Part shown: piece after piece, positions 30,001-33,000 of the stretch
How the letters are laid out: each line of letters begins with the position of its first letter
Numbering within the stretch: the stretch's first letter is position 1
Assembly (NCBI GenBank): GCA_016214745.1
Contig: JACRNW010000008.1
Span: 14,512 to 78,511 of the forward strand
Length of the DNA stretch: 64,000 nucleotides
From: Candidatus Falkowbacteria bacterium
Lineage (GTDB): Bacteria; Patescibacteriota; Patescibacteriia; XYB2-FULL-38-15
Direction: 5' to 3'
Made by a program: the position numbers

Positions 30001-33000
30001 CCAAAGCCACGCCGCAAGCCGGAGTCGGCCGGCCGCCTAAAACTTCCACTAAATTATCATATCGCCCGCCGCCGCCCAAAGCTTCCGCCTTTTGGCCCGT
30101 CGCCTGATTTTCTTCAGAAAAAAATTCAAAAACGGTTTTGGTGTAATAATCAAGTCCGCGCACAAGATAAGGATTTAAGTTATACGGAACAGCCGCGTCA
30201 TCAAGATATTCCAAAACTCGGACAAAATGATTTTTACAATCATCGCAGAGATAATCAACAATCTGCGGCGCTCCCTCTTTCAGCGGCTCGCATCCCGCTT
30301 CTTTGCAATCCAGAATCCTCAAAGGATTTTTAACTAATCTTTTTTTACATTCTTCACAAAGCGAACTCCGCTGGTCGCGATAATAATTTACCAATTTGTT
30401 TTTATACGACTCTCGGCACTTTGGGCAGCCGATACTGTTTACCTGAACGCTTGTTTTAAGGCCGAGATCTTGAAGCAAATTATAAACTAAAAAGATAATT
30501 TCGGCGTCAATTACCGCATTTCCGTCACCCAATGTCTCAAAACCAAACTGATGAAAGGCTCGGAGTCGGCCGGCTTGCGGACGTTCGTGACGAAACATCT
30601 GGCCAAAATAGAAAAATTTGACCGGCTGAGGCAGGTTAAGCATGCCATGCTGAATGTAAGCGCGCGCGATTGAGGCGGTTGCTTCCGGACGGAGACATAT
30701 ATTTTCTCCTCCGCGATCAGTGAAGGAAAACATTTCTTTAGAAACGATATCCGTTTCTCCGCCTACAGCTCTGTTAAAAAGAGCTGTTTCTTCCAAAATC
30801 GGCGTTTCAATAAATTCATAGCCATAATTATTGGCAAAATTTTCCGCTTTGTTTTTTACAAAATGCCAATATTTATATTCTCCCGGCAAAATATCCTTCA
30901 TTCCCCGAAGCGTCTGAAAAACCCTCGGCTTTGAAGGCGCGGCTTTTGCTTTCTGCTTTTTAGCGGCAACTTTTATTTTTTTCGCCTTTTTTTGAATTTT
31001 TGGTTTTTTAACCATACTTTAATTATGGATTATATTCCGGAGTTTCAAAAACTTTGATTTTATTAAATGGCCAACCTCGGACCCAAACCTTTCCGACAAT
31101 ATATTCTCTCTCAATCGGACCAAAACTACGCGAATCAAAACTGGCCAAACGATTATCGCCCATAATAAAAAATTCATCGGGACCGAGCGAGATCGTCCGA
31201 TCTCCAAAAGTTTTTATACCATCATCTAAATATTTTTCTTCAAGAAGCAGACCTTCTCTATTGTCACTATTGTAAACAATTACTTTTCCGTCTTTAATTT
31301 CCAGCGTTTCATTCGGCAAACCGATAATTCTTTTTATAAAATATTGGCTCGTATCCCGCGGATATTTAAAAACAACGATATCTCCTCTTTCCGGAGCGTT
31401 GAAGCGATAACTTATTTCATTAATAATCAAATATTCATGGTCAAAAAAATTTGGTTCCATGGACGCGCCCTTAACATAAAACGGCTGAATCAAAAAATAA
31501 CGCACCGGAACGATAATGGCTAAAGAAATTAAAACAACCTTGATTATTTCCAAAATATATTCCGTAAAACGTTTCATGGTCGTCTCTTTTTGTTTTTCAT
31601 CCCCCGGCAGAGCGGCGGACGTTGTTTCAAATTCGTTTTCCTTATTCTTTAATATGGACATAAATTATATTATTGATAAATTGATAATATTAAATTTTGT
31701 ACGTGGTGGACGCATCTGGATTCTCCGCCCGAGGCGGATCCGCCTTTGGCGGAGAACCTACTAACTTTTTAACAATGGACGATGGAGGATTCGAACCTCC
31801 GACCTTTCGAATGTGAATCGAACGCTCTAACTTCACCCGCCCACCTTTGGGCAAATGGGCTCGAGAGGATTCGAACCTCCGACCTTTCGAATGTGAATCG
31901 AACGCTCTAACCAACTGAGCTACGAGCCCAAAGGTGGGCGGGCAAGCCTGAGCTAATCGTCCAAAATTTCTGGCAGTTTCAATAATCTTAAGCGTTCTTT
32001 TAAATAACGCCGACCAAACCCGGTTTTGAAATACTTTTCTCTCTTAATCGCTGACTTTTTATCTAGACAGGCTTCGTAATATACTAATTTTAAGGGTCTC
32101 CTATTTTTAGTTGCCGTCACTTTACCAGTCTGATGTTCCCAGAAGCGTTTTCTTAAATTATCCGTAAAGCCAATGTAAAGTTTATAATCCTTCAAACTTT
32201 GTAAAACGTAGGTGTAATACATTGTAAGTAAGCGCTCCCCGCCCGCAACGCCAGCAAGACAATCTTGCTTGGCTTGCGTGGCGGGCGGGTAACCAGCTGA
32301 GCTATGCGTCCTGAAGAGACTCCCATGGCTAATAACTAAAACTTAAGCAAGATAATCTTGCCTTTTCTCAATTTGTATCTTAAAGTATTCATATTATAAC
32401 ACGCGAACTTTATAAAAGCAAGCTCGCTTTTTGAGGTATTTTCCCCGGCTCTCCGACGATTTTCGGCGGCAAAATTTCGTCTTTTGTGGCTTTTGTTATA
32501 TAATGTAAAAACACTAAGTAAATCCTGTTTGTAAAATAATGAAAATCAACTTACTGGACAAAGATTTAACGCCAAATCCAAAGAAAGGTTTACATATTTT
32601 TTGGAAATCGGCAATCGCCCTTGCGGTTATCGCTCCTCTTTTTTTAATCCAAACCACTTTTCTAAAAGGAAATTTCAACCCATTTTTAAAAATTGGTGCG
32701 GCGCTGCAAAGTTTTGAATTTGAAAATATCACCGAGTGGGTAAGTCAAATCGGAAAACTCATCCGGAGCGACGACAAACTTTTGGAAGGCGAAAAAGACG
32801 GACGAATAAATTTTTTACTTCTGGGGATGGGCGGCGCGGGACACGACGGCGCGTATCTCACGGATACGATGATTCTCGCGAGTTTTAATCCCAAAGAAAA
32901 AAAGATCGCCATGGTTTCCATTCCCCGCGATCTGGCTATCCCCATGCCCGGCTACGGCTGGAGGAAAATAAATAACGTCAACGCTTTCGCCGAAGCGGAA

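Follow-up and report, generated by a model that had tools for sequence, protein, structure and literature searches.

Phages T4 and T6 encode SegB, a free-standing GIY-YIG homing endonuclease (PMC2330249, PMC13096335), which cuts inside tRNA genes, adjoins tRNAs of many isotypes and amplifies tandem units of a tRNA together with segB (PMC13096335). In fungal mitochondria, mobile open reading frames (mORFs; Allomyces atp6; Glomus atp6, atp9, cox2 and nad3) import a replacement piece of the gene they enter and displace the native one (PMC3630166), and rRNA genes of the candidate phyla radiation (CPR) carry GIY-YIG open reading frames (ORFs) in insertions that match neither group I nor group II introns (PMC11270868). 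The locus studied here lies in a 64,000-nt stretch of a Candidatus Falkowbacteria bacterium (assembly GCA_016214745.1, contig JACRNW010000008.1, positions 14,512 to 78,511 of the forward strand; "the window" hereafter), and combines a small GIY-YIG gene, GC-rich palindromes and three nested tRNA-Val(CAC) units, with A outermost, B in the middle and C innermost. The likely explanation is that an ancestral single tRNA-Val(CAC) gene was serially invaded by selfish elements that occur throughout Patescibacteria and are made up of GC palindromes and a GIY-YIG nuclease of ~78 amino acids (aa).

SegB and the mORFs are the nearest analogues. The resemblance to SegB lies in the placement of a GIY-YIG gene among tRNA genes of many isotypes and not in an intron; the tandem repeats of SegB arise where the start of the tRNA and the end of the nuclease gene share microhomology, and here the ORF stop codon overlaps a tRNA 5' end. 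SegB is, however, a full-length enzyme that extends past its catalytic domain and cleaves at a defined motif, whereas the proteins considered here have 78-89 aa and are UPF0213/Slx1-like, not I-TevI/Seg-like. The host is a bacterial chromosome instead of a phage, and GC palindromes, exact duplications of tRNA 5' ends and replacement tRNAs bracketed by inverted repeats have not been described for SegB. Like the window locus, mORFs pair an endonuclease ORF (GIY-YIG in atp9) with a foreign gene copy that takes over while the native part decays, which may be compared with A, B and C. In contrast, the part duplicated by mORFs is the 3' (C-terminal) end of a protein gene and follows the ORF, whereas here it is a tRNA, in whole or in its 5' part, and the displaced piece lies upstream; mORF enzymes are full-size homing endonucleases, and no palindrome partner has been described for them. 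The CPR rRNA insertions occur in the same bacterial group, likewise in structural RNA genes, and sit at the tops or bases of stem-loops (PMC11270868), but that survey dealt with rRNA only, found GIY-YIG ORFs to be sparse and "outside the context of homing", and makes no mention of tRNA genes, hairpins or palindromes (PMC11270868). A literature search, in which subscription journals were thinly covered so that absence is not proven, returned no account of a tRNA/palindrome/GIY-YIG arrangement, and the locus is a well-preserved example of a probably undescribed variant of tRNA-gene-specialised GIY-YIG selfish elements.

Six syntenic loci were compared, all in the order Der-LytR, locus, signal peptidase-histidyl-tRNA synthetase (HisRS). 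L007 was reached via its GIY-YIG protein, and four loci (L209, L211, L212 and L213) via signal-peptidase homologues with 95, 86, 83 and 82% identity. A preliminary description, made from the window sequence alone, had reported an intact tRNA-Val plus the pieces of one interrupted tRNA around a GIY-YIG ORF, and everything it listed was found on the minus strand where it had been placed. Its count of tRNAs had to be revised: there are three units, and the 5' piece of B, GGACGATTAGCTCAGGC (31962-31946), which overlaps the ORF stop, had been overlooked. The features of the locus are as follows.

32393..32421, minus strand: putative promoter of the resident tRNA-Val, with TTGCTT at 32421-32416, a 17-nt spacer and TATAAT at 32398-32393
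32347..32362, minus strand: leader palindrome GGCAAGATTATCTTGC, found by pattern search; 32361-32347 is the second copy of the apex palindrome
32290..32311, minus strand: A5, positions 1-22 of unit A, GGACGCATAGCTCAGCTGGTTA; 22/22 identical to the intact tRNA-Val(CAC) of L213
32238..32289, minus strand: 52-nt GC hairpin (palindrome) with apex GCAAGATTGTCTTGC, in the D-loop of A
32231..32237, minus strand: positions 22-28 of A, GAGCGCT; agreement with L213 extends to GAGCGCT and is lost thereafter
31953..32222, minus strand: gene for an 89-aa GIY-YIG nuclease, catalytic domain only; Pfam PF01541, E=1.4e-14
31943..31962, minus strand: B5, 5' part of unit B, GGACGATTAGCTCAGGCTTG; ARAGORN tRNA-Val(cac) once joined to B3
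31926..31942, minus strand: left arm of the 17-bp inverted repeat round tRNA C, CCCGCCCACCTTTGGGC; identical arm in L209 and L211
31856..31929, minus strand: tRNA C, intact tRNA-Val(CAC); ARAGORN 31855-31930, Rfam full length at 74.6 bits
31836..31852, minus strand: right arm of the 17-bp inverted repeat, GCCCAAAGGTGGGCGGG; perfect match to the left arm
31776..31835, minus strand: TGAA followed by B3 (unit B from D-loop to 3' end), GTTAGAGCG...CCTCCATCGTCCA
31724..31753, minus strand: 30-nt double GC hairpin in the T-loop of A, between GGTTC (31758-31754) and GAAT
31704..31723, minus strand: A3, 3' end of unit A, GAATCCAGATGCGTCCACCA; identical to the L213 3' end and complementary to A5
31714-31704, minus strand: TGCGTCCACCA, terminal part of A3

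The pieces are thus nested in the order A5..B5..C..B3..A3, with A extending from 32311 to 31704 and B occupying 31962-31943 and 31835-31776; the ORF together with B and the enclosed C fills the gap between positions 28 and ~52 of A. A spacer of 8 nt (32230-32223) separates GAGCGCT from the ATG of the ORF, upstream fragments at other loci being laid out alike, and the TAG stop of the ORF is formed by U8-A9-G10 of B, inside TAGCTC. The reported tRNA-Val(CAC) within a perfect 17-bp inverted repeat was borne out by ARAGORN, by Rfam and by the repeat itself (31942-31926/31852-31836), and the complementarity of the ...TGCGTCC-ACCA end to the acceptor strand of the outer 5' fragment was likewise found, this being the A5/A3 pair. 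The 47-nt segment GTTAGAGCG...CCTC is present exactly twice, in tRNA C and in 31831-31776, as the preliminary description had noted; its attribution to the outer fragment did not hold, since it belongs to B, which is intact in L212. The 3' end of this copy (…CCTCC ATCGTCC A) is complementary to GGACGAT at 31962-31956, B3 scores as a partial tRNA in Rfam (35.8 bits) with a body identical to the resident tRNA of L212, and GGACGATTAGCTCAGGC joined to 31831-31776 gave a clean ARAGORN tRNA-Val(cac). The earlier in-silico join of A5, the 47-nt copy and TGCGTCCACCA was called as a tRNA by ARAGORN solely at a lowered threshold, and was dropped for the pairings A5/A3 and B5/B3. An interpretation of CTTACAA, which precedes the ATG, as the anticodon loop of a Val(UAC) tRNA was also rejected, and with it an insertion in that loop, as the comparison with L213 ends the similarity at position 28.

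Extra GC palindromes sit in both the D-loop and the T-loop of A. The 52-nt palindrome in the D-loop is an ORF-less, collapsed form of the inverted repeats of the element, and excising the 30-nt double hairpin from the T-loop restores GGTTCGAATCC. Equivalent T-loop inserts occur in L211 and L007 and at two further loci described below (L076 and L159), and are absent in L209, L212 and L213; the first of the two hairpins shows paired changes across loci (TCCGCC/GGCGGA, TGCGCC/GGCGCA and TCCGAC/GTCGGA). No integrase gene is present in the locus, and the duplicated tRNA part is the 5' end, unlike in integrase islands, where the 3' end forms the direct repeat. Upstream of A, the promoter block is kept in L209, L211, L212 and L213; a consensus scan did not flag it, its -35 hexamer agreeing at just 3/6 positions. 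The apex palindrome had been described as recurring at 32361-32347, which is accurate with 1 mismatch (14/15 positions agree); its pattern gave 5 strand-matches against 0.29 expected, a number reached by 0/100 shuffles. This leader palindrome (GGCAAG-N5-CTTGC) is also found in L209, L211 and L212, with the stem kept and the loop varying, and is absent in L213. It scored as terminator-like on either strand, and was assigned to the resident locus rather than to the mobile elements because it is present at the empty site of L212.

Comparison of the relatives enabled a reconstruction of the insertion history, which can be accepted with high confidence. L213 has a single intact tRNA-Val(CAC) that agrees with the A pieces of the window without a mismatch over its first 22 and last 20 nt, and L212 has a single intact tRNA-Val(CAC) that is B in uninterrupted form. 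A and B are two alleles of one resident tRNA-Val gene, since each occurs by itself and unbroken in one of the syntenic relatives. L211 shows B5, left repeat, tRNA C, right repeat and a 3' part, with the double hairpin in the T-loop and without an ORF, so that B in its interrupted form is not confined to the window. L209, the closest relative, carries the repeat-bracketed C unit at the same D-loop position without the ORF or the T-loop insert, and 7 nt of the D-stem strand are missing from its left piece; an A-type acceptor was considered for this piece, which is better explained as B5 with a 7-nt deletion. The full composite recurs in L007 around another resident allele (GGGCAAT…ATTGCCCACCA). 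The ORF is therefore present at the syntenic site in the window and L007 and lacking in L209, L211, L212 and L213, and the product of the window ORF is identical to a protein of a Candidatus Falkowbacteria genome.

From this distribution, C arrived within an inverted-repeat unit that split the resident D-loop, and the ORF is a separable addition. The preliminary description had proposed a tRNA gene disrupted by a GIY-YIG cassette that carries its own replacement tRNA. This was essentially right for the outer tRNA, because L213 has A intact and alone (GGACGCA...TGCGTCCACCA) and because the layout recurs in L076 and L159, but a single cassette is not what the relatives show, as the inverted-repeat tRNA unit and the ORF are separable, and L209 and L211 have the unit without the ORF. 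The comparison with orthologous loci could have counted against the proposal and did not: the arrangement is not common to the relatives, and decay of the outer pieces has taken a different course from lineage to lineage. A has lost positions 29-51 in the window, the T-stem strands are unpaired in L211 and a D-stem strand is partly lost in L209, so the outer copies are relics. tRNA C, the only intact one of the three, is conserved in L209 and L211 and is the sole functional gene of the locus, with A and B as remnants. The complementarity of A5 and A3 requires no selection, since both are unchanged from the intact L213 allele. A-type and B-type segments are combined differently in the window, L209 and L211, which points to frequent recombination between alleles.

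The window layout was found at two further loci, L076 (tRNA-Ala) and L159 (tRNA-Asn), with unrelated repeat sequences. In L076 the order is 5' fragment with hairpin, ORF and outer tRNA-Ala; a repeat-bracketed intact tRNA-Ala interrupts the anticodon loop of the latter, which carries a GC hairpin in its T-loop and has kept its CCA end. In L159 the ORF and a repeat-bracketed tRNA-Asn are placed in the D-arm of an outer tRNA-Asn, whose 3' relic has GC inserts in both the D-loop and the T-loop. The repeats that bracket the inner tRNAs are specific to each locus in sequence and lengthen the acceptor helix of the inner tRNA.

The 89-aa product matches Pfam PF01541 (GIY-YIG) at 54.6 bits against a cut-off of 22.6. 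The native length of the family protein is ~78 aa, with longer versions running into flanking DNA, and 28 columns are invariant in 25 homologues, among them the GIY-YIG catalytic positions, all of which are kept (Y3, Y5, Y16, G18, R26, H30 and E62). An AlphaFold2 model (pLDDT 93.3) has strands at 2-9, 15-20 and 44-52 together with helices, as in the GIY-YIG fold, and the top of the Foldseek list held GIY-YIG structures only. A profile search of the PDB matched only the UPF0213 structures 1zg2 and 1ywl, the best sequence and fold matches overall being of the UPF0213/Slx1/HIGLE kind (1zg2, 1ywl, 7wme and 7cq2-4), and fold matches to 1zg2, HIGLE and Slx1 had 26-34% identity compared with 15% for I-TevI. 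The model and these matches place the protein nearer to UPF0213/Slx1/HIGLE than to homing enzymes of the I-TevI type, apparently with no extra domain: no DNA-binding or target-recognition module was found, the catalytic domain accounting for the whole 78-89 aa. The group I intron endonuclease family model stayed far below threshold (18.4 vs 56 bits), PHROGs gave no phage family match and NCBIfam no usable family name.

Branched DNA is the substrate of Slx1 and of HIGLE, the latter being a plant Holliday-junction resolvase. Such an activity would suit a nuclease whose neighbour is a palindrome able to form a cruciform, and the absence of a DNA-binding module together with the constant pairing with palindromes would fit a structure-selective nuclease. 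Slx1, HIGLE and UPF0213 proteins differ, however, in being host repair or resolution factors with partners or extra domains, and not genes of mobile elements. Several family proteins (P0043, P0077, P0085, P0047 and P0116) end in C-terminal tails such as PVAQLDRAPVS and RGGRVIK, which are the translated adjacent tRNA gene or palindrome arm, and database lengths of the family are inflated as a result.

The family as a whole was surveyed from two sides. A pattern scan for the palindrome, with one genome per species, returned at least 120 loci; among the matches listed, ~60% were low-GC Patescibacteria with an inner sequence of a related kind, and the remainder had arisen by chance in high-GC genomes. 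The palindrome is conserved at the nucleotide level (CCCGCCCGCCA(T)CGCAAGC…GGCGTTGCGGGCGGG), the 52-nt hairpin of the window being one copy, and the pattern CCGCCCGCCA..GGCGTTGCGGGCG gave at least 76 copies in Patescibacterial loci. About half of the 76 copies lie 5-33 nt from a GIY-YIG start codon or directly after the stop, their orientation relative to the ORF is 14:14, and no conserved target sequence was apparent across the 76 flanks. The idea that the hairpin is an insert in an otherwise complete tRNA was tried by in-silico deletion followed by ARAGORN, and was rejected: a junction-spanning tRNA appeared in just 5/76, so the tRNA-like flanks of the hairpin are fragments. In the hairpin-selected set, upstream fragments freed of the hairpin equalled the downstream tRNA at 27/27, 31/31, 30/30, 35/35, 31/31, 20/20, 17/17 and 16/16 positions, with the hairpin located after tRNA position 7-24. 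The window fits this pattern, with positions 1-28 of A, the hairpin after 22, an 8-nt spacer, the ORF, and a stop in the next tRNA.

From the protein side, 1969 homologues at E<1e-5 were nearly all from Patescibacteria, and at least 594 of the 600 stretches listed by a metagenome scan for the protein pattern were confirmed as family members. In a protein-selected sample of 67 ORFs with adequate flanks, for which arm patterns with 1 mismatch allowed were used because a search for perfect-stem hairpins undercounted (12/81), 30 (45%) had an intact same-strand tRNA directly downstream, and a palindrome was present in 29 of these. In 20 of the 30 tRNA-class ORFs a direct repeat of 12 nt or more lies upstream, running from tRNA position 1-3 to 13-38, and in 10 it is perfectly identical to the tRNA. 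A further 8/67 ORFs lie between two palindrome arms, 13/67 are flanked by CCCCGTTAGA…TCTAACGGGG, and 13 were unclassified, with related short terminal repeats in nearly all of those examined. Repeat-bounded units measure 271-328 bp (~290 bp) and are delimited by CCCGCCCGCC..GGCGGGCAGG, CCCCGTTAGA..TCTAACGGGG or variants, and the stop codon of their ORFs often falls within the terminal GGGGTGA. The isotypes at family loci include Val, Lys, Gln, Phe, Asn, Met, Thr, Ile, Ala, His, Leu, Arg and Gly. At L008:2393-2466, downstream of an ORF, ARAGORN reported a "tRNA-Stop (tta)" whose anticodon loop CTTTTAA makes tRNA-Lys(TTT) likelier.

Several observations bear on mobility. Presence and absence at one syntenic site was seen between genomes with 95%-identical signal peptidases, and several element copies occur per contig or per metagenome-assembled genome. 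L209 contains a 131-nt ORF-less element (L209:2017-2153) of the CCGTTAGAGG type (GCCGTTAGAGGTC...GACCTCTAACTGG), with a 6-bp duplication, GCTTGC; its insertion point is the -35 box of the tRNA-Val promoter, and the corresponding part of the window (32431-32412) has no interruption. Palindromes without an ORF behave as miniature derivatives of the elements, and two hairpins lie within one fragment in L145. Protein genes are also entered. In L132 (about 1350-1830) a GIY-YIG ORF between palindrome arms lies in the 5' end of a protein gene, and a direct duplication of ~50 bp (gttATGAAAAAAATACTAATCTTTTCTACGGCCTATCTGCCA), starting 3 nt before the ATG, regenerates the gene start downstream. L170 and L175 carry 287-bp GIY-YIG units that interrupt homologous protein genes at the same codon (...QFQ(I/V)V / FEAIR...), L180 has this site intact, and removal of 285 bp would restore the reading frame. 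Target duplications are 6 bp for the L209 miniature and L201, and 13-50 nt in the tRNA class and L132. The nearest protein relative stood at the same isotype in 22/61 cases versus 6.5 expected, with protein identity of 66% within and 64% between isotypes, which indicates that lineages persist at an isotype yet switch often. Tandem units of ORF, hairpin-bearing tRNA fragment, ORF and tRNA were seen in L013 (about 1240-1400) and L066:6040-6500; they suggest local amplification, the repeat in L013 adjoining an assembly gap.

No DDE, HUH, serine or tyrosine recombinase was found in the elements, the GIY-YIG nuclease being their sole ORF. In this they differ from REP/RAYT and IS200/IS605, which share with them the dispersed short GC-rich palindromes, the single small nuclease gene and the ORF-less derivatives, but rely on HUH (Y1) transposases and defined target tetra- or pentanucleotides; here there is a GIY-YIG gene only, no target consensus was seen, and the 5' duplications of the target gene are long.

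With moderate to low confidence, I suggest that movement occurs by a homing-like repair after structure-selective cleavage. A nuclease of the Slx1/HIGLE/UPF0213 type would break the DNA of a tRNA gene or of a palindrome (as cruciform or hairpin), and recombinational repair off an occupied allele would copy the ORF and tRNA sequence into the broken gene, in the manner of homing with co-conversion. With similar donor and resident tRNAs, homology would resolve the right junction and only the promoter-proximal 5' duplicate would stay; with differing ones (A vs B), the resident 3' part would also be left, giving rise to nesting. GC palindromes would then build up in the loops of dead tRNA copies, since selection would remove such insertions from live tRNAs. 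The resident promoter (TTGCTT-17-TATAAT) would drive fragment, ORF and tRNA as a single transcript, and insertion would be harmless to the host because an intact tRNA is always regenerated or supplied, co-transcribed from that promoter as proposed. Co-conversion or duplication of target flanks is seen in the exact 5' tRNA duplicates and in the mosaic A/B segments of the relatives, and the endonuclease ORF lies outside any intron, between tRNA pieces. To some extent the elements thus resemble free-standing homing endonucleases, in that alleles with and without the ORF and apparent co-conversion were found; a recognition domain was not.

Other observations fit serial invasion by such elements less well. 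There is no recognisable DNA-binding domain, so that sequence-specific homing is not established, and the intact downstream tRNA retains any tRNA-based target, which leaves escape from re-cutting unexplained; tandem and nested units could reflect such re-cutting. The ORF of the tRNA class lies outside the palindrome, a layout that cannot be rigorously derived from the inverted-repeat-bounded form, and the direct repeat starts almost exactly at tRNA position +1, which a simple staggered cut does not predict. Target-site duplications are absent or unclear in most inverted-repeat-bounded ORF copies. The repeats that bracket the inner tRNAs are not a conserved terminal repeat, and the A/B mosaics across relatives mean that no unique order of events can be given for the window.

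An entirely different account would have the inserts removed at the RNA level, as in intron-containing or split tRNAs, through cleavage at the inverted-repeat helix followed by ligation or non-covalent assembly, with tRNA C being "intron-encoded". The outer acceptor strands are still complementary, A keeps an encoded CCA and B is complete save for its D-loop insert; A in the window, however, is without positions 29-51 and has a mismatched T-stem, the D-stem of L209 and the T-stem of L211 are damaged, and identity to the intact L213 allele explains the A5/A3 complementarity. The inverted repeats around the inner tRNAs differ between loci yet stay paired and lengthen the acceptor helix, but the 17-bp helix at the B junction continues unbroken into wobble pairs, leaving no bulge-helix-bulge. 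Separated pieces, GC-rich complements at the breaks and, in some cases, positions outside the anticodon loop are shared with the archaeal split and intron-containing tRNA genes of Nanoarchaeum and Caldivirga, in which the splicing endonuclease acts at a bulge-helix-bulge and the pieces are the sole source of the tRNA, whereas here decaying outer pieces accompany an intact tRNA. Since an intact tRNA with the same anticodon is always there, the outer one is unneeded. The composite is seen at three isotypes, the T-loop hairpins show paired changes between loci, and L170 and L175 interrupt homologous genes at an identical codon, all of which such processing would accommodate; against this, no group I or group II intron model of Rfam matched the window locus even at E<=10, there is no room for a ribozyme core, the inserts lie in the D-loop, in the T-loop and after position 28 and not at the group I site in the anticodon loop, and the 14:14 orientation of palindromes relative to transcription is what an element acting at the DNA level predicts. 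This account is accordingly very improbable for the composite tRNAs. The broader claim of a new bacterial intron-like class, in which palindrome-bounded inserts are removed from RNA, a tRNA lies within a tRNA, and the interrupted B and the L170/L175 genes are functional, is hardly more credible and still very unlikely, and mobile DNA is much the likelier reading.

Serial invasion also has to be set against three other accounts. tRNA genes are often tandemly duplicated, and an ordinary duplication of tRNA-Val followed by unrelated insertions, deletions and gene conversion would dispense with a tRNA-bearing cassette; gene conversion could produce the 47-nt identity of B3 and C, and L013 and L066 do hold tandem units. 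This sequence of events, which the preliminary description had offered as an option, is unlikely, given that no more than one tRNA stands at either empty site and the pieces are nested instead of lying in tandem; that different relatives carry A and B as alleles of one resident gene, so that one must have been transferred; that the bracketed C unit lies at the same D-loop position beside different outer sequences; and that the same architecture exists at other isotypes. Equally doubtful is a domesticated host factor, in which the small GIY-YIG protein would be, for example, a junction-resolving or repair nuclease expressed from tRNA promoters, with the palindromes serving as signals for processing or termination. 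Strong purifying selection (28 invariant columns), a fold nearest to the Slx1 and HIGLE resolvases, plausible co-transcription with the tRNA and a terminator in the window with a CCGCCCGCC stem agree with it, but the presence/absence pattern among close relatives, several copies per contig, many insertion contexts including protein genes, terminal inverted repeats, ORF-less miniatures with target duplication and frequent isotype switching do not. A chimeric contig caused by the repeated tRNA-like segments is the least probable of all and can nearly be dismissed: the source is metagenome-assembled and the locus has repeats of 47 nt and less, but these are shorter than typical reads, the architectures of L007, L209, L211, L076 and L159 were assembled independently (JGI, ENA, NCBI and Logan), and NCBI records an identical ORF product on a 118,874-bp contig.

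A proposal less radical than an intron-like class, for which the balance falls just short of even, is that the elements represent an undescribed kind of mobile DNA, a unit of ~290 bp whose sole gene encodes a structure-selective nuclease of 78 aa and which colonises and rebuilds tRNA genes. If true, Patescibacteria would carry very abundant and apparently unreported minimal selfish elements, with thousands of copies in many candidate phyla, that colonise tRNA genes while the tRNA supply is preserved, and tRNA genes would be seen in the course of replacement by foreign alleles. Odd tRNA fragments, annotations of a "GIY-YIG family protein" beside tRNAs and tRNA-derived C-terminal protein tails would be explained, and there may be a tie to the long-noted insertions in CPR rRNA genes. 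The elements would also offer a natural system for target finding by a nuclease of ~78 aa without a DNA-binding domain, possibly via DNA structure, and recognition of this kind would interest recombination and genome-engineering research.

Some minor observations were made elsewhere in the window and in a relative. A hairpin resembling an intrinsic terminator, CCGCCCGCC-TAATC-GGCGGGCGG with a T-run after it, lies at 45532-45554, its arm being the same as in the mobile palindrome. At 36034-36134, an 11-bp inverted repeat (GTCTGCCAGCG / CGCTGGCAGAC) surrounds ~80 nt that matched no Rfam family at the gathering threshold. L211 alone has a gene for a 23S rRNA intervening-sequence protein (PF05635; L211:3169-3534) between signal peptidase and HisRS, which is another polymorphic small insertion. 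ARAGORN called a tRNA-Met(CAT) at 44728-44802, which had no Rfam match at the gathering threshold; its last ~24 nt (AAATCCGGCCCCCGCAACCAAAAA) recur ~105 nt downstream, at about 44914-44937, and 44728-44937 may therefore be another tRNA with a partial duplication.

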